Assembly: GCA_023245565.1 (NCBI GenBank)
Contig: JAHFKB010000007.1
Coordinates: forward strand, 2,379 to 34,378
Length of the DNA stretch: 32,000 nucleotides
Reading direction: 5' to 3'
Source of the DNA: an archaeon
GTDB lineage: Archaea; Nanobdellota; Nanobdellia; SCGC-AAA011-G17; GW2011-AR18
In this document: positions 8,248 through 27,584 of the stretch, piece after piece
How positions within the stretch are numbered: position 1 is the first letter of the stretch
How the letters are laid out: each line of letters begins with the position of its first letter
The notes under the pieces: generated by a model
Seen by the model: only the letters and a program-made list of their open reading frames with translations
Told to the model about the DNA's origin: nothing
Database searches by the model: none
Program-made: the position numbers and the translations under genes

Positions 8248-10881
8248 ATGGATAAAGAATTTGAAATTAGAAAAGAGAAGATTTTTAAGTTTTTGAAAAA
8301 CCATAAAGATTGGATTCAGTATATTTTATTATTTATTATTTTATCTCTGGCTGTTTATATTAGAATTCAAAATCTAGAATTGTTAAAAGATGTTACAACT
8401 GGGGAATATATTTCTTTGGAATTAGATTCTACTTTATTTTTAAGATATGCTCAATATATTGTAGATCATGGTAAATTATTTACTCTTGATACAATGAGAA
8501 ATTTTCCTGTTGGTGCAGATATTAGTGGTATTGGTATATTTACTTCTTATTTTGTCGCGTATTTATATAAATTTTTACATATTTTTATTTCTTCTATAAC
8601 CATTCAATATGTAGATATTATTTATCCAATATTTGCTACAGTTATTGGTTCTATATTTTTATTTTTATTAGTTAGAAGACTCTTTGATTATAGGGTTGGT
8701 TTATTATCTGTTTTATTTTTAGTTACTGCACCAACTTTTTTATTTAGAAGTATATCTTCTGATCATGATATATTAGGATTAATGTTTATATTTATGACGC
8801 TTTATTTCTTTATTGTTGGCTGGCATTGTAAAAAGATTAAAAATAATATTATATTTGGATTATTAGCAGCATTTACTAGTGTTCTTGCTTATAGTACTGC
8901 AGGAAATGTTAGAATATTTTTTGTAATGCTTGCTTTGTTTACTTTATTTCATGTTACATTAGATTCAGTTAAAAAAAGTGATTTATATGTATATCCTGTT
9001 TGGTATTTAGGGACTTTTATAACACTTATAATTTTAGGAAGAATTGATTTTAAATTTCTTTTATTAGATTATGGTGTTGCTTTACCAGCTACTTTAGCTT
9101 TCTTTAGTTTGATTGTTTATATTATATTTAAAAATAAAAATATTAGTAATTATTTGTCTTCTAATAAATTTATTTCTAAAATTCCTCGTGGATTTCTTGT
9201 ATTATTTTTAGTTTTTTTTATAGGTTTTTTATTTTTACTTATATTTTTTGGATTTTCCTTGATTTCTTATATAATCTCTAGTTTTATGACTTTATTTTCT
9301 TCAGGTTTATATGTTAATCGTTGGGCTTCTACAGTGGCTGAGAATAAAAGAGTATTTGTTGATGATTGGATAGGAAATTTTGGTTTAATTTTATTTTGGT
9401 CTTTTATAATTGGTTTAGTCTTATTAATATATAATTTATTTAAAGATATTAAAGATGGTAAGAATTTGTTTTATGTTTATTCAGTTTGCATACTTGCTTT
9501 TATATTTTCTAAATATTCTCAAAATTCTATATTAAATGGTTTATCTACATTATCTAAATTTTTATTTTTTGGATCAATTCTTATTATGATTATTTATACT
9601 CTTTATTATTATTTTACAAATTATTATCAATATAAAGAACAAGGTAAACATTTTACTATGGATCTTAATTGGAGATATACTTTTCTTTTAATTATAGCTC
9701 TTGTTAATGTTATTATAGGAACTACTGCTATAAGATTATTTTTTGAATTAGCACCATTTGTAGTAATATTTTCTTCTTTTACATTTATTTTTATTTTAGA
9801 TTATTTTTTATCTCTTAAATTAAAATATGTTAATTATATTGCTGTATTATTTTTGTTCTTGTTTTTGTTTAGTCCTTTTTCTTTTGCTAAAGGAATTGTA
9901 TATACTGATGCTGTTAATTCATATAATTCTGTGAAATTTAGTGGTCCAGGTTATAATCAACAGTGGCAAGTAGCAGGTAAATGGGTAAGAGATAATACTC
10001 CTAAAGGTGCTGTTTTTAATCATTGGTGGGATTATGGTTATTGGGTGCAGTCTGGTTTTGAAAGACCAACTGTAACAGATGGTGGTAATTTATTTGGATG
10101 GTGGAATTATTTAACTGGAAGACATGTATTAACTACACCTAATGATGAGACTGCTATGAAGTTTTTTTATGCTCATAATGTAAGTTATTTGTTAATTGTT
10201 AGTGATGAGATAGGAAAATATCCTGCTTATTCTTTAATAGGTTCTGATAAAAGTCTTGATAGATATTCTTTTGTTAATTTTATGGGTTTAAATCCTACTT
10301 TAACTAAAGATACTAGAAATGGTACTTTGTTAGTTTATACTGGAAATTATCCTTTAGATGAGGATTTAATATTACAAGGGAAAATTTATCCCAAAGGAAC
10401 ACCTATTTTAGGAGTTGTTCTTCCTGCTCAACCAATTTATAATGATAAGAGTGAAGTTATAGGAAATAATATAATGCAGCCTATGATAATTTTAGGCACA
10501 CAAGATGGACAAATACAATTACGTATGAAATGTGTTTATATTGATAGATTATATAATTTTGAATCTTATGATTATGGCGGTTGTATTAGGATTATACCAA
10601 ATATACAAAATGGTCAAGTTAGTAATGTTGGGGCTTTAGTATTTCTTTCTAAAAGAGTTGCTGATTCACTATTTGGAAGATATTATTTATTAGAAGAAAA
10701 AAATAAAAATATAGAACTAGTTTATACTGATGAGAAGAGTTTTCCTTTAGCTATATATAATGGCCGTGGGATCGGTCCTATAAAAATTTGGAAGATTAAT
10801 TACTCAAAAGGATTTAGTGTAAATAAAACTGAATATGATTATTTTACCTCTACTGGTTATTTAGACTATGGTGCTGTTTGA
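8248..10881 (+). CDS. aglB: Archaeal oligosaccharyltransferase AglB (STT3 family)
   Basis: 877 aa with a large polytopic N-terminal half and a soluble C-terminal half. Canonical 'WWDYG' lies in 'NHWWDYGYWVQ' (nt 10024..10038). It starts 1 nt after the SpoIIM-like stop. Confidence 0.9.
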   Translation: MDKEFEIRKEKIFKFLKNHKDWIQYILLFIILSLAVYIRIQNLELLKDVTTGEYISLELDSTLFLRYAQYIVDHGKLFTLDTMRNFPVGADISGIGIFTSYFVAYLYKFLHIFISSITIQYVDIIYPIFATVIGSIFLFLLVRRLFDYRVGLLSVLFLVTAPTFLFRSISSDHDILGLMFIFMTLYFFIVGWHCKKIKNNIIFGLLAAFTSVLAYSTAGNVRIFFVMLALFTLFHVTLDSVKKSDLYVYPVWYLGTFITLIILGRIDFKFLLLDYGVALPATLAFFSLIVYIIFKNKNISNYLSSNKFISKIPRGFLVLFLVFFIGFLFLLIFFGFSLISYIISSFMTLFSSGLYVNRWASTVAENKRVFVDDWIGNFGLILFWSFIIGLVLLIYNLFKDIKDGKNLFYVYSVCILAFIFSKYSQNSILNGLSTLSKFLFFGSILIMIIYTLYYYFTNYYQYKEQGKHFTMDLNWRYTFLLIIALVNVIIGTTAIRLFFELAPFVVIFSSFTFIFILDYFLSLKLKYVNYIAVLFLFLFLFSPFSFAKGIVYTDAVNSYNSVKFSGPGYNQQWQVAGKWVRDNTPKGAVFNHWWDYGYWVQSGFERPTVTDGGNLFGWWNYLTGRHVLTTPNDETAMKFFYAHNVSYLLIVSDEIGKYPAYSLIGSDKSLDRYSFVNFMGLNPTLTKDTRNGTLLVYTGNYPLDEDLILQGKIYPKGTPILGVVLPAQPIYNDKSEVIGNNIMQPMIILGTQDGQIQLRMKCVYIDRLYNFESYDYGGCIRIIPNIQNGQVSNVGALVFLSKRVADSLFGRYYLLEEKNKNIELVYTDEKSFPLAIYNGRGIGPIKIWKINYSKGFSVNKTEYDYFTSTGYLDYGAV

Positions 10882-17203: not shown

Positions 17204-18205
17204 ATGAATTATTTTATATTAATATATGGATTAATTAGTTTTTTTATAGTCTTATTATTAACTAGTTGGTTGATTAAATACCTGAGAAAAATTGGTTTGA
17301 TTGTTAAAGACCAGAATAAGAAAGACAAACCATTAATTCCTATTTCTGGAGGATTAACTGTATTAGCAGGAATATTTGCTGGATTATTTTCTTTTATTTT
17401 TGTTAGAACTTTTTTTGGAGATGGCTCTAATTTTATAATAAATGATCATAACTTAATGTTATTATTTGCTGGAATGACTTCTTTGTTAATAATAACTTTA
17501 GTTGGATTTTTAGATGATATTTTAATTAATAAATCTCATGATAGTTCTATAGGATTAAGACAATGGCAAAAACCCTTGATAACTTTAACTGCTGCAATTC
17601 CATTAATGGTTGTTAGTGCTGGTACAACATTTATGCACTTTCCTATTTTAGGAAGGGTTGAATTTGGAATTCTTTATCCATTATTATTAGTTCCTTTAGG
17701 AGTTGTGGGTGCTTCTAATATGGTTAATATGTTAGAAGGTTATAATGGCTTAGCTGCTAGTATGGCAATAGTTTACATTGGTATGTTAGGATTTTATGCT
17801 TATTTTAATAATAGATATTTAGCAGCTTTAATTGCTATGGTTATTTTCTTTTCTTTATTAGCATTTTATTATTATAATATGTATCCTGCTAAAATATTTC
17901 CAGGTGATTCTTTAACTTATTTACTTGGAGCTAGTATTGCAGTTATTGCTGTTTTAGGTAATATAGAAAAAGCTGCGATTATTAGTTCAATTCCATTTTT
18001 TATTGAGTTTATATTAAAAGCTAGAAGTAAATTTAAGGCACATAGTTATGGATATGAAATTAATGGAAAAATAAAAGTAGATTATGAAAAAATATATTCT
18101 TTGCCACATATATTTGCTAGAAGTGGGAAATATACAGAAAAACAAATTGTTTTCTTTATGATATTAATACAGATTTTATTTAGCTCTTTAATATGGTTTA
18201 TTTAA
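17204..18205 (+). CDS. aglH: UDP-GlcNAc:dolichyl-phosphate GlcNAc-1-phosphate transferase (MraY/WecA/ALG7 superfamily, AglH-like)
   Basis: 333 aa, about 10 TM. 'NMVNMLEGYNGL' is the archaeal version of the NxxNxxDGxDGL motif. 'FLDDILI' is a DD motif after TM3, and 'FPGDSLTYLLG' is also present. Confidence 0.75.
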   Translation: MNYFILIYGLISFFIVLLLTSWLIKYLRKIGLIVKDQNKKDKPLIPISGGLTVLAGIFAGLFSFIFVRTFFGDGSNFIINDHNLMLLFAGMTSLLIITLVGFLDDILINKSHDSSIGLRQWQKPLITLTAAIPLMVVSAGTTFMHFPILGRVEFGILYPLLLVPLGVVGASNMVNMLEGYNGLAASMAIVYIGMLGFYAYFNNRYLAALIAMVIFFSLLAFYYYNMYPAKIFPGDSLTYLLGASIAVIAVLGNIEKAAIISSIPFFIEFILKARSKFKAHSYGYEINGKIKVDYEKIYSLPHIFARSGKYTEKQIVFFMILIQILFSSLIWFI

Positions 18206-19470
18206 AGAAATTTTTAAAATATACAAAAGAGGATAGTTTGATTAGAGATAGTTTTATACTTTTTATAGCAACAATGATAATGAATCTTGGTGCTTTTTTT
18301 TATCATTTTGTTATTGGAAGAATGTTAGGACCTAGTGATTATGGTGTTTTAGGTGTTGTTTTATCTTTATTTTATATTTTATTAGTTCCTTTGTATGTTA
18401 TACAAACTTCTTTATCTAAATTTGTTGCTGAATTCAAAGCTAAGAAAAATATTAAAAGTATAAGTACTCTTTTTTTTAAATCTATTAAAAAATTAATAGT
18501 TGTTGGTTTAATATTATTTGTTTTATTTTTAATTATTTCTTTTTTCCTTGCAGATTTCCTTAATATTCCTAAAAGTCTTCTTTGGATTGTAGCTTTAGCA
18601 GTACCATTTGTATTTTTATTGCCTATAGACAGAGGGATATTGCAGGGCTTACAGAATTTTAAAATTCTAGGTTTAAATTTTGTAATTGAATCTTTTACTA
18701 AATTTTTAATTGGAATTGGTTTAGTATTTTTAGGATTTGGAATTTATGGTGCTGTATTTGGAATTGTTGCTGCTTATATAACTGCTTTTGCTTGTGGTTT
18801 TTTCTCACTTAGAAAATATTTTAAAAATTATAAGAAAGATATTAATACTAAATCAATCTATAGTTATTCTTGGCCTGTTTTTATTGTTTTATTAACTTTA
18901 ACTTTATTTTATAGTTTAGATGTAATTTTAGTTAAACATTATTTTGATTCACTTAATTCTGGTTATTATGCTGCTTTTGCTATTCTAGGAAGAATTGCTT
19001 TTTTTGCTTCTTTTTCAATAGTCTTTGTTTTATTTCCTAAAGTAGTTGAAACACATGCTTTGGGTAAGTCTAATTTTAATCTTGTAAAAAAAGCTTTATT
19101 ACTTGTTACTATAGTTTCTGTTGGTTTAATATTATTTTATTTATTATTTCCTAAATTAGTTGTTTTAATCTTATTTGGAAAAGAATATTTATATATTACT
19201 AAATATTTAGCTCCATTTGCTTTAGTTATGAGTTTATTTTCTTATGTTTATATTTTATCATTTTATAATTTATCTATAAATAAGACTTCTTTTGTTTATT
19301 ATTTATTTATATTAGATATATTAGAGATTTTATTATTGGTTAAATTCCATAGTAATTTATGGCAAGTTATAATTGTTTTGTTAGTTTTGATATCAATAAC
19401 TTTAATATTTATGTTATTTTATACTTTTTATAAAAATGGTAAATTTATCAATAATAATTCCAGCTTATAA
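18193..19470 (+). CDS. MOP/Wzx-type oligosaccharide flippase (polysaccharide biosynthesis protein family)
   Basis: 425 aa with about 12 hydrophobic spans throughout and no soluble domain. It sits between aglH and a Dol-P-hexose synthase, overlapping them by 13 nt and 35 nt. Confidence 0.65.
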   Translation: MVYLKKFLKYTKEDSLIRDSFILFIATMIMNLGAFFYHFVIGRMLGPSDYGVLGVVLSLFYILLVPLYVIQTSLSKFVAEFKAKKNIKSISTLFFKSIKKLIVVGLILFVLFLIISFFLADFLNIPKSLLWIVALAVPFVFLLPIDRGILQGLQNFKILGLNFVIESFTKFLIGIGLVFLGFGIYGAVFGIVAAYITAFACGFFSLRKYFKNYKKDINTKSIYSYSWPVFIVLLTLTLFYSLDVILVKHYFDSLNSGYYAAFAILGRIAFFASFSIVFVLFPKVVETHALGKSNFNLVKKALLLVTIVSVGLILFYLLFPKLVVLILFGKEYLYITKYLAPFALVMSLFSYVYILSFYNLSINKTSFVYYLFILDILEILLLVKFHSNLWQVIIVLLVLISITLIFMLFYTFYKNGKFINNNSSL

Positions 19471-20137
19471 TGAGCAAAATAGAATAGCAAGTAGGCTTGA
19501 AGAATGTTTGAGATACTTTAGAAAACAAAAATATAGTTTTGAAATTATTGTTGTTAATGATGGAAGTACTGATAAAACTATTGATGTTGTTAAGAAATTT
19601 AAAGATATTAAACTTGTAAATTATTTTCCTAATCATGGTAAAGGATATGCTGTAAGAACTGGAGTATTAAAAGCTAAAGGTAAATATATTTTATTTTCTG
19701 ATGCTGATATGTCTACTCCAATTGAAGAATTAGGAAAACTTATTGGTTTTATTAGAGATTATGATTTAGTTATAGCTTCTAGGGCATTAAAAGAATCTAA
19801 AGTTAATACTTTAGGTTATAGAAAATTTCTAGGGAGAATTTTTAATTTATTTGTTAATTTATTAGTTGTTCCAGGAGTTAAAGACACTCAATGTGGTTTT
19901 AAATTGTTTAAAAGAGGAGCTGCTTTAAAACTTTTTAATAAACAAAGAATTGAACGTTGGGCATTTGATGTTGAGATATTATTTTTAAGTAAAAAACTTG
20001 GATATAAAATTAAAGAAGTTGGTGTAGAATGGAACCATTTTGATCATAATGGTGTTACTCCTACTGGTGAAAGTTTTAAAATGCTAAAAGAGATATTTAA
20101 AATTAGATGGAATTGGATTCTTAGGAGATATAAGTAA
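19436..20137 (+). CDS. GT2 dolichyl-phosphate beta-hexosyltransferase (ALG5/AglK-like)
   Basis: 233 aa. 'IIIPAYNEQNRI', 'VNDGSTDKT', 'FSDADMSTP' and 'DTQCGFKLFKR' closely follow the ALG5-type Dol-P-Glc/GlcNAc synthase signature. Confidence 0.85.
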   Translation: MVNLSIIIPAYNEQNRIASRLEECLRYFRKQKYSFEIIVVNDGSTDKTIDVVKKFKDIKLVNYFPNHGKGYAVRTGVLKAKGKYILFSDADMSTPIEELGKLIGFIRDYDLVIASRALKESKVNTLGYRKFLGRIFNLFVNLLVVPGVKDTQCGFKLFKRGAALKLFNKQRIERWAFDVEILFLSKKLGYKIKEVGVEWNHFDHNGVTPTGESFKMLKEIFKIRWNWILRRYK

Positions 20138-20221
20138 TTACTCTTTAATGATAAATAAATAGTAAGTTTTATAAATTCTAAATGTTTTTATTTTATTATT
20201 GATTATTAAGTAAAAACAAAA

Positions 20222-20980
20222 ATGGAAAATCAAACGATTCAAGTTGTAAGAGATGTTTTAAAGAGTGTACCTAGTGGAGTTTATTTTCAAAAAGTTCCAA
20301 AAGATCCAACTAAAATATTTTATTCACAAGGAAATAATGGAGTAGCTGATTCTTTAGAATCATGTAGTAATGAAGGTTATCAAGCTTTATTTATGCCAGA
20401 ACTTGCTAAGGTAAGAATAGGCAGTCAAGAATTATGGAAAAATTGGTTTTTAACTCCTAGTTTAAGAGCTACTGGAACAACTAAACAAGGTTCTAAAGTT
20501 GTAGTTTATGCTCATATTCCTAATTATTTTAGTAATCCAGCAAATATAAGAAATGCTGTAGATGGTAAATTAAATAATGGTGCTGGACCTATGCCTCAAG
20601 AAGAGTTTAACAGACTTGAAGCTTTAAACGGAAATGGAAGGGTATTTGTAATTCCATATGAAACTTTAAAACAATCTAGTTCAGGAGTAATAAAAGTTGA
20701 TGATGCTTTAGAACACCCTCAAACTATTCCATTTTTAGGACTTGGAAGAGAAGGTGCTGAAAAATATTTAGCTAAACATAGAGAAGTTTATGGATATAAT
20801 ATTGGTATTTGGCATAGTGATGATTTTAATAAGAAAGATCCGCTTGGCCGTGTGCTGTGCCTTGGCGACGGCTACCTCAACGGCTTGCTCGGCGGCGACA
20901 TCCTTGACTACGATGGTCGAGTGTTCGGAGTAGTAGTGCCGGAGGCGCTAGTAGCGCAAAATTTAGAATCAAGAATTTAA
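20222..20980 (+). CDS. Hypothetical soluble protein whose last ~40 codons lie in a GC-rich island
   Basis: 252-aa ORF with its own 84-nt upstream gap. I see no TM or signal sequence and recognise no family. Its amino-acid composition is less Lys/Ile/Asn-biased than its neighbours. Confidence 0.55.
   Translation: MENQTIQVVRDVLKSVPSGVYFQKVPKDPTKIFYSQGNNGVADSLESCSNEGYQALFMPELAKVRIGSQELWKNWFLTPSLRATGTTKQGSKVVVYAHIPNYFSNPANIRNAVDGKLNNGAGPMPQEEFNRLEALNGNGRVFVIPYETLKQSSSGVIKVDDALEHPQTIPFLGLGREGAEKYLAKHREVYGYNIGIWHSDDFNKKDPLGRVLCLGDGYLNGLLGGDILDYDGRVFGVVVPEALVAQNLESRI
20840..20958. other. Compositional island: about 120 nt at 62 % G+C inside a roughly 20-25 % G+C context
   Basis: Hand count gives 74 G+C in 20841..20960. 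The flanking 60-mers give 15/60 (20761..20820) and 11/60 (20961..21020). In the reading frame of the host ORF, 27 of 39 third codon positions are G/C. GGC is used 6 times, and CTC, CTG, CCG, GCG and GAC also occur. Confidence 0.9.
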
Positions 20981-20981
20981 T

Positions 20982-21863
20982 TTATTTTGTACTTTCTATT
21001 CTATTCCAAATTTTTGAGAAACTTTGTTTTCTTAATTTTATGTTTATAAAAATATCTAACCATAGATATAATCTTAATATTATTAAAATAAGAGTCCAAT
21101 ATATTTCTTTAATTGTTTTTGGATATTTTAATGCTCTTAAAACTTCTTTACTTTCTTTTATGAAAGAACGCATTTCATCTTTGCTTTTTATTATTTTTTT
21201 CATTTGTGAATAACCGCCAGCACTTCTTCTTTTTTGTTTAATCCAATCTCTTAATGTTGTTGGGAATTTTACATAGACTTTTGCTTCTGGAGTATATTTT
21301 ATTTTATAATTCTTTAAGTAAATTAAATTACTTATAACTGCATCATCAGCTAGAGAAACTTCTGGAATTTGTTTTATTATTTTATTTCTAATTGCCATTA
21401 AATATCCTGAACATATTAGATATTTATTTTCTTTATTTAATTTTAATCTTGTTTCATGTGCTCCTTCATCTGTTAATAAATGACTAAAATATCCTAACAT
21501 ATTATTTCTTGGATTTAAAGACATTGGACGTCCACTTACTGCTCCTATTTTTTTATCTTTAAATGGTTTTATTATTTCATTGATTGAATTATCTGATATA
21601 TACACATCACCATCTGTTAATATTAGGATATTTCCCTTTGCTTTTTTGAAAGCTATATTTAATGCTGAAGGTTTTCCTTTACCTTCATCTTGATAAATCT
21701 TTAATTTTTTATCCTTTATTTTCTTAGCTGCATTTAAAGTTTCTTTATCTGGAGCAAATACTAAAAGTTCATATTTAATATTTGTTTTTTGTTTTAGAAT
21801 TGATTCTATTGCTTTACCTATTGTTTTTGGTTCTTTAAATGCTGTTATAATTATTGAGATCAT
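20982..21863 (-). CDS. Membrane-anchored GT2 glycosyltransferase
   Basis: 293 aa. It has 'ISIIITAFKEPKTIGKAIESI', 'LTDGDVY' (DxD) and 'WIKQKRRSAGGY' (a QxxRW-like region), plus a C-terminal hydrophobic helix 'IYWTLILIILRLYLWLDIFI'. Confidence 0.8.
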   Translation of the reverse strand: MISIIITAFKEPKTIGKAIESILKQKTNIKYELLVFAPDKETLNAAKKIKDKKLKIYQDEGKGKPSALNIAFKKAKGNILILTDGDVYISDNSINEIIKPFKDKKIGAVSGRPMSLNPRNNMLGYFSHLLTDEGAHETRLKLNKENKYLICSGYLMAIRNKIIKQIPEVSLADDAVISNLIYLKNYKIKYTPEAKVYVKFPTTLRDWIKQKRRSAGGYSQMKKIIKSKDEMRSFIKESKEVLRALKYPKTIKEIYWTLILIILRLYLWLDIFINIKLRKQSFSKIWNRIESTK

Positions 21864-22294
21864 TTTTCTATTAAGTATTCACTAATCCATCCTTTGTATT
21901 TATTTTTTATCTCTTTAGGAAGTTCTTTATAAGATTTTATGAATTTTCTGCAATTTGGACTTTTACAATTGCATTCCACTTCATGTTTGTGTCCTATTGT
22001 TGTTGAATAATCTATTAATATTTCTTCACCTAGTTTAATATTTTTCATTGCTGTAATTTTGTTTAGATTTTTTATTCCACAATTTGGATCACATGAATGA
22101 TTTAAAAATTCTCCTGGATTATTTTTATCTGGATTTATAAATTTATTTTTCCCAATTTGTAAACTTTTATAATTAGCTTTTGACCAATTTATTATATTCC
22201 CTGAAAAAGTAAAAACTAATTTGTTTTTTTTAAATTTCTTATTTGCAAAAATACCACTACCTTCTTTTTCTGAATTTTTAATTATCCAATTCAT
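21860..22294 (-). CDS. SET-domain protein (putative protein-lysine methyltransferase) with Cys-rich post-SET
   Basis: 144 aa. 'GEFLNHSCDPNCG' (NHSCxPN) and 'GEEILIDYS' (ELxxDY-like) are the SET core, and 'CNCKSPNCRKF' is a post-SET CxCxxxxC. An ATGA overlap links it to the downstream GT2 (21860..21863), and it overlaps the upstream GT4 by 17 nt. Confidence 0.85.
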   Translation of the reverse strand: MNWIIKNSEKEGSGIFANKKFKKNKLVFTFSGNIINWSKANYKSLQIGKNKFINPDKNNPGEFLNHSCDPNCGIKNLNKITAMKNIKLGEEILIDYSTTIGHKHEVECNCKSPNCRKFIKSYKELPKEIKNKYKGWISEYLIEK

Positions 22295-23432
22295 TGTAAA
22301 TCCTGTTTAGTTTTTTAGATATTTTATCCCATGTAAATTGTTTTGCTTTTTCAATATTTGTTTTTTGCATTTTTTCTCTTATATTTTTATTTTTTATTAA
22401 GTAAGATATATGGTCTTTTAATTTTTTAGTATTATTAAAATTATATAGTAAACCATTATTTTTACTTATTAAGAATTTTCCACCTTCTGTATTTGTAGAT
22501 ATTATTGCATTACCTTTAGCCATTGCTTCTAAAATTGTTATTCCAAAAGCTTCCCATTCGCTTGGCATTATATATATTTCAGATAATTGAAGTATTGAAT
22601 CTCTATCCTCATCATTACAATTAGTTAAAAATAATATATTTTTTTCTAATTTTAGTTTTTTTGTTTTTTCTAATAGTATTTTATAATATCCTGCATCTTC
22701 TCCTATTGCTATAAATAATATCTTTTTATTTCTATTTATTATTTCTGGTAGAACTTCTATTATATTTTGTACTCCTTTGTATTCGTGTAATCTTCCTATA
22801 TAGGATAAAATAAAGCGATCTTCTAAATTGTATTTTTTAATTACTTTATTTGTATTTAATTTTTTAAATATCTCTTTTTTTATCCCATTTGGAACATAAA
22901 ATATTTTATTTTTATTAAAACCATAGTCTTTTCTTAACCAAGAATCTTGGAATGTATTTACTTCAATTACTGCGTTATATACTTTGTTTGTTAATATTAT
23001 TAAATTATTTACAATTGATCTCAAGAATTTCTGCCATAAAGGATAAGATTTAAGTGTCATGAATGGGCCATGAGGAGTTATTACAAATCTTGTTTTTCGA
23101 GAAAATAATTTTTTTATTAAAATACAAAAATCATGCCATAAAAAACCTAAAGAATTTACATGTATTATGTCTAGGTCATATTTTAATAAATTTGTTAATA
23201 AAGATGGATAAAATGCAACATAATATTTAAATCTAAATAATGTTTTAGATCTATGGATAAATATATTTCCTAACTTTTCTTCTTTTTTCTCAATTATTTT
23301 ATTATTTTTTCTATCAGAACTAAATATATGTATTTCATGATTCTTTGATAGTTCTTTTGCAAGATTTAATATGTTTACTTCAACCCCTCCCGGGAAAGGA
23401 TAAAAATAAGTAGTGACTATGCCTATTTTCAT
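22278..23432 (-). CDS. GT4-family (GT-B) glycosyltransferase
   Basis: 384 aa. It has 'YFYPFPGGVEVNI' at the N-terminus and the E-x7-E region 'MPSEWEAFGITILEAMAKGNAIISTNTEGG'. Confidence 0.85.
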   Translation of the reverse strand: MKIGIVTTYFYPFPGGVEVNILNLAKELSKNHEIHIFSSDRKNNKIIEKKEEKLGNIFIHRSKTLFRFKYYVAFYPSLLTNLLKYDLDIIHVNSLGFLWHDFCILIKKLFSRKTRFVITPHGPFMTLKSYPLWQKFLRSIVNNLIILTNKVYNAVIEVNTFQDSWLRKDYGFNKNKIFYVPNGIKKEIFKKLNTNKVIKKYNLEDRFILSYIGRLHEYKGVQNIIEVLPEIINRNKKILFIAIGEDAGYYKILLEKTKKLKLEKNILFLTNCNDEDRDSILQLSEIYIMPSEWEAFGITILEAMAKGNAIISTNTEGGKFLISKNNGLLYNFNNTKKLKDHISYLIKNKNIREKMQKTNIEKAKQFTWDKISKKLNRIYNELDN

Positions 23433-23505
23433 AGAACTTTATCTAAATAATCATTTATTATATTTGTGATTTTATTGTTCATCTTTTTATTTGTAATTAA
23501 CTCTT

Positions 23506-24147
23506 TTAGAATTTTTTCTCTGTTATCTGTACTATTACTCCATATCTATAATAATAAAATATCTTCTTAAGATCTACCCTGTTGTCTATCAAAGCATTAA
23601 GTCTTTTTTGTGTGAAAAATTTCTGTTTTGTCCAAGGCCATAATTTTCTTAGTAGTTTAGGCCTAGTTATTATATACCAGAGTTTGTGAAATGAAAAAGT
23701 TGCAGGGACGATGGTTATTATATACCCATTTTTTTTAGTTGTCCTTATTGCTTCATTCATTATCCCCTGCGGGTTATCGAAATGCTCTAAAAGTCCCTGA
23801 CTCCATACAATGTCAAATGAGTTGTCTTTAAATGGTATGTGAAAGCAGTCTCCCTTTACGAATTTTGCATTTTTTACATTGAGTTTTTTTGCGTTTAACT
23901 TTGATAGACTCAGTGCTTCATTTGATGTATCTAATCCAGTAAATTGTTTTATCTTAGGGGCAATGTATAATGAAGTTGTGCTTGAACCACATCCAAGTTC
24001 AAGAATTTTTGTATTTTTATTAATATAAGGCTGGAACACTTTTTTATATAAAGATTCTGTAAAGATCTGCCTCATATTGTCTAATATTTTCATTAGAATT
24101 GACTTTGACTTCCATACTTGGTCCCAGTCTTGTGCAGTAACTTTCAT
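23506..24147 (-). CDS. Class I SAM-dependent methyltransferase
   Basis: 213 aa. It has motif I 'ILELGCGSSTTS', 'GLDTS', and 'FDIVWSQGLLEHF' (Methyltransf_11-like). An ATGA overlap (24144..24147) couples it to the upstream GT2. Confidence 0.8.
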   Translation of the reverse strand: MKVTAQDWDQVWKSKSILMKILDNMRQIFTESLYKKVFQPYINKNTKILELGCGSSTTSLYIAPKIKQFTGLDTSNEALSLSKLNAKKLNVKNAKFVKGDCFHIPFKDNSFDIVWSQGLLEHFDNPQGIMNEAIRTTKKNGYIITIVPATFSFHKLWYIITRPKLLRKLWPWTKQKFFTQKRLNALIDNRVDLKKIFYYYRYGVIVQITEKKF

Positions 24148-24827
24148 GAGAATAGTGATTTTAGATAATAATAAATCACTTTACCTCCAAGTTTTGATTT
24201 TCCCTTACTTCTTAATCCAAAGTCATAATAGACTCCAGTTGTACTGATGTTTCTCATATTTTTTAATAAGTCAAATAATACTTTGTAACCATGCATCTGA
24301 AATGATTTTTTATTTTTGTTTATTATACTTACTGCTTTTTTTCTGTCCATCCCAAAAAAGCCAGACATTATGTCTTTGCAGTTAACTTTATGTATCACCA
24401 ATTTTAAATTTCCTAATAATATTGCAGATTTTGAAATCATTTTTCTATGCCAAGGCCATGGAACAATAACTTTTCTTCTTATACCAACAACAATGTCTGA
24501 TCCATTCTCTAAAGCTAATGATATCTCTCTTATTTTTTCAGGAGGATGCTGCAAATCTCCATCTATGACAATAAAAAATTTTGTTTTTGTATAAAGTATT
24601 CCATCAATAACACTTGCAGTAAGTCCCTTTATCTTTTCTTTTTTTCTATCAAGGAAATAAGTGCCGGGATATTTTTTTACAATATTTTTTGTTTTGTCTT
24701 TTGAACCATCATCTGATACAATAATTTTTATTCCTGGATAATTTTTCGTTATTATACCAAGAACTTTTCCTATGTTCTTTTCTTCGTTTAATGTTGGAAT
24801 TATTATTGTGAATTTTTTATATTTCAA
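24144..24827 (-). CDS. GT2 dolichyl-phosphate mannose synthase (DPM1/GtrB)-like glycosyltransferase
   Basis: 227 aa. It has 'FTIIIPTLNEEKNI', 'VSDDGSKDKT' and 'IVIDGDLQHPPEKI', the DxDLQHPP hallmark of polyprenyl-phosphate hexose synthases. Confidence 0.85.
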   Translation of the reverse strand: MKYKKFTIIIPTLNEEKNIGKVLGIITKNYPGIKIIVSDDGSKDKTKNIVKKYPGTYFLDRKKEKIKGLTASVIDGILYTKTKFFIVIDGDLQHPPEKIREISLALENGSDIVVGIRRKVIVPWPWHRKMISKSAILLGNLKLVIHKVNCKDIMSGFFGMDRKKAVSIINKNKKSFQMHGYKVLFDLLKNMRNISTTGVYYDFGLRSKGKSKLGGKVIYYYLKSLFS

Positions 24828-24881
24828 GTTTCAGCCTCTAAAAATTTTGTAATATTGATATTTATAAATCTGTTGCAATTC

Positions 24882-25988
24882 CTATACAGCAAAATTAATT
24901 GTCCAGTGATGCTGAGTGACAATAGAATAGTAATGGAATAATACAGTCAACCATAGAATGATTATTATTAATAGCAATATTTTTCCAATAATAGTCTCGT
25001 GATTTTTACCTATAAATAAAACATATAATGGCAATAAAAATGATACATATTTGAAAGAATATATGGGGAAAAATAATGTTAATATTATTAATAATAAAAT
25101 TGGTAAAATAAAATTTGTAAGAATGAAAATAGTTTTTCTTCTGTCTTCCTTCCAAAATCTCATTATCCCTATTAAAAATACTAAGAACACTATTGGTGCA
25201 GTTATGATTAAGTATGGTGCAATTTTTGGTGTTGAAGAAATATCTAACATTGTAGAAAATTTATATATTGGATAGAGTGCAGTTTGAAGTGTAACTTTAC
25301 TGCCTGTTACAAGATTGCCTTGAGGGAGTAAATAATTATATTGACTTATAAAATAGGGAATTAATGGAAGTAATAAAATTAAAGCGATTGTTCCAAAAAT
25401 GAAAAAACTTTTTATTATTTCTTTATTCTTTCTATTTTCTATTAAGAACCATATTAATTGTGTTAAAACAAAAGTACCAGAAAGGTAATGCAGATATATT
25501 GAAATCACGTAAATTATAAATAAATATATTAGGTACTTTTTTTCTTTTGTTTCTCTTAATTTAATAAATATAATCAGTGATAGTATGTAGACTAACATTA
25601 GTAATATGTAAACTCTGATATGTTGAGAGAATAATACATGCATTGGATTTATACTTAACAAAAAAGCAGAAACCAAAGCTGTTTTCTTATTTGTTAATTT
25701 TGAGACAAGAATATAAAATAATATTATGTTTAATAACCCTATTATTACCATAAATGTTTTTAATACTAATATGGACTTTGTTAAAGCTAATAAAATTCCT
25801 AATAAAAAAAAGAATAAAGGGGGATTGCCAAATTCACTCATATATGTAGGCCCTTTTTCTATAATTACTCTTGCATTATTTATGCTAGCACTTTCATCTG
25901 TGCCATAAGCTTTATCGTATAGGTGGATTGATCTGAGGAGTATTGTGATAATTAATATTATCATTAAAATTTTAATTTCTTTCTTCAT
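24882..25988 (-). CDS. GT-C-like membrane glycosyltransferase (short ArnT/PMT_2-like)
   Basis: 368 aa, polytopic. 'YDKAYGTDESASINNARV' follows the first TM helix, placing a D-E motif in the same position as in the other two ArnT-like paralogues. No large soluble domain. Confidence 0.55.
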   Translation of the reverse strand: MKKEIKILMIILIITILLRSIHLYDKAYGTDESASINNARVIIEKGPTYMSEFGNPPLFFFLLGILLALTKSILVLKTFMVIIGLLNIILFYILVSKLTNKKTALVSAFLLSINPMHVLFSQHIRVYILLMLVYILSLIIFIKLRETKEKKYLIYLFIIYVISIYLHYLSGTFVLTQLIWFLIENRKNKEIIKSFFIFGTIALILLLPLIPYFISQYNYLLPQGNLVTGSKVTLQTALYPIYKFSTMLDISSTPKIAPYLIITAPIVFLVFLIGIMRFWKEDRRKTIFILTNFILPILLLIILTLFFPIYSFKYVSFLLPLYVLFIGKNHETIIGKILLLIIIILWLTVLFHYYSIVTQHHWTINFAV

Positions 25989-26141: not shown

Positions 26142-27584
26142 ATGAAGATATGTTTTGTAATGCCGCCGATGGCTAGCGGTTACTGGAAAAAATTAGGTAA
26201 AAAAGTTGGTCCTCAGTCTGAGCCTTTAAGTTTATGTTATATAGCTTCATATTTAAATTCTAAAGGTTATAAGGCAGATATAATAGATTGTATAGCAGAA
26301 GATTTAACAGAAGAAGAAATAGAACAAAGGTTAAGAGAGGGAAAATATGATATTGTTGGTGTAACTATGCTTACTTTAATGTATACTCAGGCATTAAATG
26401 TGTGTAAAATTGTTAAGAAGATTAATCCAAAAACTTATGTAGTAATAGGTGGTCCACACCCAACAATTGCAGCTTCTGCGACATTGCAAAATGAAAAGGA
26501 TATAGATTTTGCAGTTATTGGTGAAGCTGAAATAACATTTTATGAACTTTTAAAAGCATTAGATGGGGAAATAAAACTTAGTGCTGTAGATGGTTTAGCT
26601 TATAAAACAAATGATGGCAAAGTGATGTTAAATAATCAAAGAAAGCTGATTGACGATTTAGATATATTACCCATGCCAGATAGAAGTCTATTAAAAATGG
26701 AACTTTATAGGCCTTCTGTTTCTTATTACAAAAGATTACCAGCATACATAATATTAACAACTCGTGGTTGTCCTTATAGGTGCACTTTCTGCTCTAAAGT
26801 CTTTGATAAGAAATATAGACAGAATTCTGTTGAATATACAATAAAAGAAATGAAGTATTTAATGGAAGAATTTGGTGCAAAAGAAATAGTTTTTAGAGAT
26901 GATACTTTTACAATGAAATTTCCTTGGGTTACTGAATTTTGTAATAAACTTATTGAAGAAGGCCTTAATAAAAAAATTAGATGGAGTTGTATGACTCGTG
27001 TAAATCTAGTTAACTTAGAAATGCTTAAACTAATGAAAAAAGCTGGATGTTGGGGAATTCATTTTGGAGTTGAATCTGGAAATCAAAGACTATTAAATTT
27101 AATAAAGAAAGACGTTACTGTACAACAAATTAAAGATGCTTTTAAGTGGTGTAAAGAAGCAGGAGTAGAGACTAGGGCCTTTATGATGCTTGGGCTTCCT
27201 ACAGAAACTAAAGAGGAAAGTCTTGAAACCATAAGATTTGCAAAAGAACTTGATCCTGATTGGGCTCAGTTTACTATTACTACTCCTTATCCAGGAACAG
27301 AACTTTATAAACAAGCTAATGAACATGGTGAACTTAAATCTATTGACTGGAATAACTATCAAACATGGGCAGGATTTTCTGAAAATGATTTGGTCTGGAC
27401 CACAAATGGTAGAGAATCTTCAGAGCTTAAAGCGTTGCAGAGAAAGGCATTAAGGGAATTTTATTTCAGACCTAAATTTATATTAAAGAAATTAGTTCAT
27501 ATAGATAATCTGCCAATATTTAGAAAATATGTTTTAGGAGCATGGGCACTTCTAACAACTGGAGAAGGCAGAGCTATGGAATAA
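26142..27584 (+). CDS. Cobalamin-binding-domain (class B-type, COG1032-like) radical SAM enzyme
   Basis: The N-terminal Rossmann-like B12-binding module has 'MKICFVMPP...', 'DIVGVTMLT' and 'VVIGGPHPT'. The radical SAM cluster motif is 'TTRGCPYRCTFCS' (CxxxCxxC at 26769..26792), and 'GVESGNQRLL' is also present. The ORF track starts at 26046, but the first 32 codons are hydrophobic/AT-rich and contain the candidate TATA box. Confidence 0.85.
   Translation: MKICFVMPPMASGYWKKLGKKVGPQSEPLSLCYIASYLNSKGYKADIIDCIAEDLTEEEIEQRLREGKYDIVGVTMLTLMYTQALNVCKIVKKINPKTYVVIGGPHPTIAASATLQNEKDIDFAVIGEAEITFYELLKALDGEIKLSAVDGLAYKTNDGKVMLNNQRKLIDDLDILPMPDRSLLKMELYRPSVSYYKRLPAYIILTTRGCPYRCTFCSKVFDKKYRQNSVEYTIKEMKYLMEEFGAKEIVFRDDTFTMKFPWVTEFCNKLIEEGLNKKIRWSCMTRVNLVNLEMLKLMKKAGCWGIHFGVESGNQRLLNLIKKDVTVQQIKDAFKWCKEAGVETRAFMMLGLPTETKEESLETIRFAKELDPDWAQFTITTPYPGTELYKQANEHGELKSIDWNNYQTWAGFSENDLVWTTNGRESSELKALQRKALREFYFRPKFILKKLVHIDNLPIFRKYVLGAWALLTTGEGRAME

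Follow-up and report, generated by a model that had tools for sequence, protein, structure and literature searches.

The window analysed here is a stretch of 32,000 nucleotides from an archaeon. It carries one sharp island of GC-rich DNA, which forms the 3′ end of an open reading frame (ORF). A major question is what kind of element could produce such an island in a very AT-rich genome. The island is very probably the variable repeat (VR), initiation of mutagenic homing (IMH)-like motif and target-recognition hairpin of an AvpA-family target gene, that is, a gene diversified by a diversity-generating retroelement (DGR) in a DPANN archaeon. The template repeat (TR) and reverse transcriptase (RT) that complete such an element are found beside relatives of the gene. 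The features of the gene and the island are as follows.

20222..20980, + strand: AvpA-like DGR target gene (P0001, 252 aa), from the ORF and its homology to AvpA.
20840..20958, + strand: GC-rich, A-poor island. It opens with the 6 nt that precede the VR and continues through VR, IMH-like motif and hairpin region.
20846..20932, + strand: VR of 87 nt or 29 codons, GRVLCLGDGYLNGLLGGDILDYDGRVFGV, from homology to the TR/VR repeats of relatives.
20925..20932, + strand: IMH-like motif TCGGAGTA, which ends the VR on its 3′ side and departs from the canonical YGGGGTA (GGAATA in the TR).
20934..20950, + strand: GC-rich hairpin or cruciform TAGTGCC-GGA-GGCGCTA, within the coding sequence, with a 7-bp stem that includes one T.G pair and a GRA-type loop.
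20945..20957, + strand: palindrome GCGCT-AGT-AGCGC of the first-pass annotation, an alternative hairpin.

The island has a G+C content of 63.0%, against 24.8% for the whole window. Across the stretch, 120-nt segments average 24.8% G+C with a standard deviation (SD) of 5.3%, and the top value, 62.5%, belongs to the segment starting at 20837. This is ~7 SD over the mean and the sole peak of such height, the next-highest 120-nt peaks reaching 41–42.5%. The only other local maxima (40–42.5%, at 9941–10085, 23741–23860 and 27144–27278) fall within long ORFs, resemble ordinary coding sequence and are not VR-like. On the + strand, adenine too is scarcer in the island than anywhere else in the window, with 11–14% A against a mean of 33% (SD 6.7%). 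The first-pass annotation, a reading of the sequence alone, had counted 74 G or C among the 120 nt of 20841–20960, and G or C at 27 of the 39 third codon positions of the island. Our recounts agree with both figures. In the remainder of the ORF, G or C occupies third positions in 16 of 206 codons (8%). The earlier count for the downstream 60-mer (11/60) is also correct, while the upstream 60-mer (20781–20840) contains 16 G or C rather than 15. The short direct repeats listed for the island are all present (CTTGGC at 20843 and 20861, ACGGCT at 20868 and 20880, GGCGAC at 20864 and 20894). They occur because the VR reiterates GGC and xAC codons, and they are no separate features.

The ORF (252 aa, + strand) remains open through the island and encodes there the peptide that had been quoted for it. 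P0001 matches AvpA of known structure (PDB 5IOO) with E = 7.9e-60 in phmmer, residues 31–236 aligning with AvpA residues 9–208 (~205 residues). When a profile of the family is compared with solved structures, it finds one match, 5IOO ‘AvpA’, with E = 3.5e-95. AvpA is the variable protein of a nanoarchaeal DGR. It has a C-type-lectin (CLec) fold and a VR of 27 residues, 12 of which vary (Handa et al. 2016, PMC5006420). Of the AvpA motifs GxxVVVYAH, HPxxxPFxG and RFxGV (Handa et al. 2016, PMC5006420), the first two are exact in P0001 (GSKVVVYAH and HPQTIPFLG). The third reads RVFGV, with R, G and V kept and F one position off. From its homology to AvpA, P0001 is predicted to be a variable protein with a C-type-lectin fold. 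Its island segment corresponds in alignment to the VR of AvpA as crystallised.

More than 120 homologues were found, all unnamed or ‘hypothetical’, in Woesearchaeota, Pacearchaeota and Nanoarchaeota (DPANN). The family alignment contains the C-terminal segment in frame throughout. An invariant scaffold (P-GRVL-LG, GL-G, L and GRV-GV, often followed by APEAQ) is broken up by hypervariable positions, which differ in nearly every sequence. The suggestion that the ORF is open merely because GC-rich DNA lacks stop codons is contradicted by this alignment and by the match to the AvpA VR.

A Pfam search of P0001 returned no family at E up to 1. The Gly/Asp-rich peptide of the island had been likened loosely to calcium-binding GGxGxD repeats. 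RTX-type calcium-binding repeats (HemolysinCabind) were considered and rejected, as no Pfam family appears at that threshold and the Gly/Asp-rich residues are mutable VR positions that vary among homologues.

A scan of species-representative genomes gave 67 loci encoding the AvpA-like family, and at 53 of these the C-terminal module could be anchored. In all 53 related DPANN loci the C-terminal 120 nt are GC-enriched, at 43–70% G+C against backgrounds of 26–51%. Relatives from equally AT-rich genomes (25–30% G+C) also encode the C-terminus with GC-rich codons (43–70% G+C). The first-pass annotation had made the case for an RNA or DNA element depend on the codons of just such relatives. Their GC-rich choice favours a role at the DNA level and a nucleotide-level constraint.

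The same comparison bears on the idea that the island is a 3′ coding module grafted recently from a high-GC donor. The borders of the island are abrupt in composition and the gene is mosaic relative to its relatives, as a graft would have it. However, the module sits in frame at the same position family-wide, in genomes of 26–51% G+C, and it is always GC-enriched, which excludes a one-off graft. Its nearest DNA relatives are VRs and TRs of AT-rich DPANN genomes, not sequences of high-GC organisms. We regard a recent horizontal graft as highly improbable.

Relatives of the gene reveal the system to which the island belongs. At 19 loci a second copy of the segment lies ~400–450 nt downstream on the same strand, 74–92% identical over ~57–91 nt. 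The 19 pairs have 257 mismatch or gap columns, and 223 of these fall at adenines of the downstream copy, against 6 at adenines of the upstream copy. For L033 and L041 all 15 of 15 mismatches are at such adenines, and for L054 and L058 all 14 of 14. The repeat block begins at the Gly-Arg codons of GRVL; its last letters are GGGGTA upstream and GGAATA downstream. The downstream copy, the TR, has AAC or AAT at every hypervariable codon. TRs contain 21–29 A in 84–87 nt, nearly all in AAY codons, and their non-A positions are 60–76% G+C in all genomes examined. Beyond the TRs lie ORFs for reverse transcriptases (PF00078, E ~1e-22; motifs YVDD and LGNLTSQ). DGRs are defined by adenine-specific TR/VR pairs and RTs, and those of the relatives match the published nanoarchaeal elements.

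Several further observations concern these TRs and RTs. Short conserved motifs flank the TRs of L003, L006, L010, L019, L023, L025, L027 and others, with RGGCTAC upstream and GCTGGGAC or CCAAGAC downstream; they may be parts of the DGR RNA used for priming or RT recognition. In many relatives (L003, L027, L033, L037, L054, L058) the TR shares the reading frame of the RT ORF, or gene callers start that ORF further upstream. Database ‘RT’ proteins (P0121–P0237) therefore start with TR-encoded Asn-rich peptides such as GNNHNNNLNGNNNLNNNARFLGI. Several distinct types of TR peptide occur among these proteins, which implies other target families. Five loci (L007, L014, L031, L034 and L035) have an RT-like gene 3–10 kb from the VR with no matching TR detected beside the VR; they may be non-adjacent target arrangements or DGRs that serve another target. 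P0104 (L001 / L048, JACPLT010000006.1, Pacearchaeota; gene 6001–7263 of L001) seems to fuse an AvpA-like protein to an RT. A natural fusion was rejected, as its ‘VR’ has Asn codons throughout and ends like a TR in GGAATA, and as the contig stops 96 nt past the gene. P0104 is most likely an assembly jump from a VR into a TR.

The bounds of the window VR were set from 15 TR/VR pairs in relatives, with start GGNCGN and end GGGGTA in the VR or GGAATA in the TR. The VR occupies the 3′ end of the target ORF, and AAY-type mutable codons are interleaved with the invariant scaffold, which in the window reads GGCCGTGTGCTGTNCCTT...GGTCNAGTGTTCGG. Variation is confined to codon positions 1 and 2, and the C at the third position is kept. 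Nearly all family VRs contain YGGGGTA at their end; the window VR and that of L071, a relative found in the same metagenomes, have GGAG. In nanoarchaeal DGRs the IMH is TGGGGT and its TR counterpart, IMH*, is TGGAAT (Paul et al. 2015, PMC4372165). The window motif, at the homologous position, is intermediate between the two. In AvpA the IMH encodes the beta5 strand, and both VR and IMH lie within the CLec fold (Handa et al. 2016, PMC5006420).

The hairpin that follows (20934–20950) is a genuine conserved element. It is position-homologous to the GCGCC-GRA-GGCGC of relatives. Within 70 nt of the IMH, 36 of the 53 loci have a stem of 5 bp or more, all of it Watson-Crick, that closes a 3-nt loop, compared with 2.8 expected from shuffles; the loops of relatives are mostly GAA, GGA or AGA. 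We aligned 30 position-homologous hairpins, rows that had been picked for possessing a stem; in this alignment pairing holds in 84% of cells, and covariation scores 0.215. Shuffles score 0.094, and none of 500 reached the observed value. Five of the seven stem pairs are altered on both sides (e.g., GCGGC/GCCGC and GTGCC/GGCAC). GRA-loop hairpins inside the target gene have been described for nanoarchaeal DGRs (PMC4372165).

Two other foldings of the island had been pointed out. The 13-nt palindrome at 20945–20957 is present, and it overlaps the conserved hairpin but differs from it, the hairpin starting 11 nt further upstream. The two are mutually exclusive, as the GGCGC arm is common to both. 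The palindrome is not conserved in the closest relatives: the syntenic locus L073 has an imperfect version, GCGCCAGTAGCGC, and L071 has none (GCGCAAGTCGCA). The hairpin proposed at 20904–20920 also exists, but it includes a wobble pair and covers mutable codons, and no sign of its conservation was found.

GC spikes in AT-rich genomes often mark RNA genes. This, together with the short conserved hairpin, speaks for a structured non-coding RNA gene in or as the island, with the ORF incidental. The Rfam scan that the first-pass annotation had called for found nothing at the gathering threshold in the whole window, and a relaxed scan of 20600–21200 gave chance-level matches with E of at least 4.5. 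ARAGORN finds no tRNA or tmRNA. The segment 20830–20970 folds no better than dinucleotide shuffles, with z-scores of +0.33 and −0.37 on the two strands. Moreover, the segment is translated in frame in the >120 homologues and matches the VR of the AvpA structure. We give an RNA gene very little credence. Among the alternatives raised at the outset, a nucleotide-level functional element overlapping the ORF end, of the recombination- or attachment-site kind, is nearest to the truth. Its recombination-type target site is found here as VR, IMH-like motif and hairpin, while the small RNA and the chance-open ORF that were raised with it are not borne out. The island is very probably a retrohoming target site that is also protein-coding.

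An assembly chimera or a contaminant insert could also give a sharp switch in composition, and contigs in European Nucleotide Archive (ENA) assemblies do break near the gene. L070, the ENA contig k141_2855621, is an independent assembly that spans window positions 19334–21034 at 99.9% identity. Its two mismatches, at 19863 and 20041, are far from the island, and it reproduces both island borders. The reading frame is continuous and homologous throughout, and the contig breaks are explained by co-existing alleles. An artefact is the least probable of the readings considered here, and we give it next to no weight.

The alleles became apparent from L073 (ENA ERZ27280021 k141_2049575), which comes from the same ENA assembly as L070 and is syntenic with the window. 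The two sequences are 99.6% identical over 20981–25490, and 100% from ~21560. Within the AvpA-like gene identity falls to 81%, and in the bin that holds the VR it is 60%; the L073 VR has a different scaffold and is one codon shorter. L070 stops 54 nt past the gene, and L073 begins 60 nt before it. These contig ends at the gene, on a shared backbone, indicate that two whole-gene alleles co-exist and that assemblies therefore break there. When window positions 20163–21560 are compared with L073 and L070, the whole AvpA-like gene appears as a hotspot of divergence.

In the mechanism established for DGRs, the TR RNA is copied by the DGR reverse transcriptase, which misincorporates opposite template adenines (step 1). 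The mutagenised cDNA then replaces the VR, and this step is directed by the IMH and the downstream hairpin (step 2). The outcome is a protein in which ~12 AAY-templated codons are randomised on the ligand-binding face of the CLec fold (step 3).

From the measured composition we infer four reasons why such a target should be GC-rich. First, the scaffold codons avoid A, as measured, and this may serve as an escape from mutagenesis; the TR/VR scaffold is poor in A and also low in T. Second, the non-A template positions are themselves 60–76% G+C. Third, A-to-N rewriting would strip most of the remaining adenines from the VR. Fourth, the IMH and hairpin are GC-rich in their own right. Strong G:C pairs at the invariant positions may also help the mutagenised cDNA to stay paired with its target. 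GC-richness is a general trait of DGRs in the segments on either side of the mutagenic region, in the IMH and in the inverted repeat (Wu et al. 2018, PMC5758913). Placed in a genome of 25% G+C, a GC-rich VR, IMH and hairpin therefore stand out as a spike.

Unlike the 19 loci with a TR, the window contains a VR only. Direct-repeat searches and an ungapped adenine-wildcard scan of both strands found no TR in the 32 kb, nor did gapped blastn-short with the island and the inferred TR or a scan for GGAATA plus AAY codons. A tblastn search of the window with seven family RTs gave a best E of 0.36. The window VR is an orphan, as are most family members: an adjacent TR is missing at 30 of the 49 loci that have at least 700 nt past the VR start. 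RT-less nanoarchaeal VR sites have been read either as fossils or as remotely diversified targets (Paul et al. 2015, PMC4372165). Other DGRs are known to have remote targets (Wu et al. 2018, PMC5758913).

We lean towards a remote target. A TR elsewhere in the genome probably rewrites the window VR in trans at present or did so very recently, and we rank this above an old fossil; both the templating of this copy and its current activity are what we infer from sequence comparison. The evidence comes mainly from L071, which encodes P0003, lies in another genomic context and is paralogue-like. The window and L071 VRs are identical at 58 of 58 non-mutable positions, while their flanks are 82% (upstream 100 nt) and 83% (downstream 48 nt) identical. 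The two VRs have 15 differences, all at codon positions 1 or 2 and none at third positions. Twelve of the 15 fall on consensus TR-adenine positions (p = 1.4e-5), and L071 has A at the other three. Identity of the VR scaffold despite flanks of ~82% favours recent templating in trans.

A second pair of the same subclade, P0005 and P0010, is identical over 213 N-terminal and 48 C-terminal residues and differs in the VR alone, which also speaks for recent templating. Their VRs differ in length by 5 residues, which is unusual, as DGR rewriting normally keeps length.

Several results weigh against templating in trans. No TR or RT was found in the window, as described above, nor near P0002, P0003, P0004, P0006 and P0012, the five closest relatives fetched. 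The TR expected for the window VR has the pattern GGCCGTGTGCTGT-A-CCTT...GGTC-A-AGTGTTCGGAATA; two IUPAC scaffold patterns had 0 matches to a cognate TR in JGI metagenome and IMG/VR contigs. The scaffold GRVL...G[RQ]VFG is in none of the 120 proteins listed among 694 RT relatives. One VR sequence is known for P0001, from two assemblies. The IMH-like motif is GGAG rather than GGGG, a synonymous G-to-A change common to L071, and related orphan VRs have GGTG or GGGA at the IMH. The T.G pair in the window hairpin stems from a GCG-to-GTG change. The GGAG motif and the T.G pair could be erosion. Finally, L074 and L076, paralogues of one genome, differ at a few non-adenine scaffold positions.

These same points are what a fossil VR would predict. 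Here the cognate TR and RT would have been lost, the GC island would be a remnant, and the protein would evolve by ordinary mutation and recombination. The absence of TR and RT from the window and from beside the five relatives fits this course, as do the single VR variant of P0001 and the scaffold differences between L074 and L076. The synonymous G-to-A change in the IMH fits AT pressure, the hairpin has its T.G mismatch, and the fossil option has been raised in print for RT-less VR sites (Paul et al. 2015, PMC4372165). On the other side, the third codon positions of the island are still G or C in 27 of 39 cases, against 8% in the rest of the gene and in a genome of 25% G+C. Compared with L071, the scaffold is fully identical (58/58) next to flanks of ~82%, and all 15 differences fit adenine templating and spare the third positions. 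An old relic should have undergone scaffold and synonymous drift, and the lack of any against L071 counts against a fossil. A fossil VR is a possibility that we take seriously but consider the less likely course.

Divergence at this locus is not confined to the VR. The 3′ half of the window allele is nearer to L071/P0003, at another locus, than to L073, and this suggests exchange between paralogues or alleles on top of DGR mutagenesis. The orphan genes P0001–P0006 and P0012 form a subclade in which none is beside an RT. We put forward, tentatively and as an unlikely-side proposal, that these genes are maintained as scattered trans-targets of one remote DGR with a non-canonical IMH (GGAG/GGTG), and that whole genes are swapped between alleles and paralogues besides VR mutagenesis. 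If this were true, a surface or ligand-binding protein of an ultra-small archaeon would undergo two-tier diversification, by cassette exchange and by retroelement hypermutation.

The AvpA-like gene lies within a cluster of cell-surface glycan genes (window 18193–23432). Its neighbours are as follows.

18193–19470: Polysacc_synt flippase-like gene, upstream of the AvpA-like gene.
19436–20137: GT2 gene, upstream of the AvpA-like gene.
20982–21863: convergent GT2 glycosyltransferase gene, directly after the AvpA-like gene.
21860–22294: gene for a SET-domain protein of 144 aa, downstream of the AvpA-like gene.
22278–23432: GT4 gene, with the Pfam assignment taken from the syntenic L073 gene.

Another member of the family, P0016 (263 aa, 56% identical), appears to be encoded on the same source contig, outside the window. 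Its VR has two residues fewer and more Asn, and ALGTQ replaces APEAQ. Because of this replacement the hairpin of P0016 is probably lost.

The island is a real, functional feature, and its gene is an unannotated orphan member of the already described AvpA-family DGR target genes. A striking compositional anomaly is thereby explained by a known mechanism, with no grounds to pursue foreign DNA or a new RNA here. In very AT-rich DPANN genomes, and probably also in those of the candidate phyla radiation (CPR), a DGR VR can be recognised by a sharp spike of ~90–120 nt, poor in A and rich in G+C, with which an ORF closes. This signature serves even where RT and TR are not on the contig, the majority case in this family (30/49 loci). 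P0001 is probably involved in host or partner recognition by an episymbiotic archaeon. Its allelic divergence is unusually strong for a near-clonal population, and the locus is a reasonable place to study the upkeep of orphan DGR targets.

Three known systems invite comparison. The DGR of Bordetella phage BPP-1 (VR of mtd; brt, avd and TR) likewise places the VR at the 3′ end of a gene for a CLec-fold ligand-binding protein, and its TR-to-VR differences are adenine-specific, as in the relatives of the window gene. There too the VR ends in a GC-rich IMH, and an inverted repeat just downstream, also rich in G+C, promotes homing (PMC5758913, PMC4372165). P0001 has no sequence similarity to Mtd, however; AvpA and Mtd are 15% identical (PMC5006420). 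The window VR is about half as long as that of BPP-1, and its hairpin, with a 3-nt GRA loop, is inside the ORF rather than downstream. Relatives of the window gene lack a consistent Avd-sized ORF in the 200–250 nt between target gene and TR, and the window host is archaeal and the locus chromosomal.

Remote DGR targets (Treponema denticola, Legionella and others; PMC5758913) and the RT-less nanoarchaeal sites (Paul et al. 2015) share with the window a VR gene that has no TR or RT nearby. For the published remote targets the cognate TRs are known and differ from the VRs at adenines only, whereas remote targeting of the window VR is suggested by its scaffold identity with L071.

The closest system is AvpA itself (locus L065, Nanoarchaeota SCGC AAA011-G17; Paul et al. 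2015, PMC4372165; Handa et al. 2016, PMC5006420). AvpA is followed by a TR ~420 nt downstream and then an RT, while the window gene has neither and is followed by the convergent glycosyltransferase gene. The window gene also differs in its IMH (GGAG, not GGGG), the T.G pair of its hairpin, the RVFGV form of the RFxGV motif and its shorter post-VR tail (15 aa, compared with 46 aa in AvpA). Yet the VR has the same position and the same length, 87 nt or 29 codons including the IMH. Both genes have the scaffold GR-L--G...GL-G...R--GV with AAY-templated mutable codons, both belong to DPANN hosts, and both carry a GC-rich GRA-loop hairpin in the coding sequence right after the VR.

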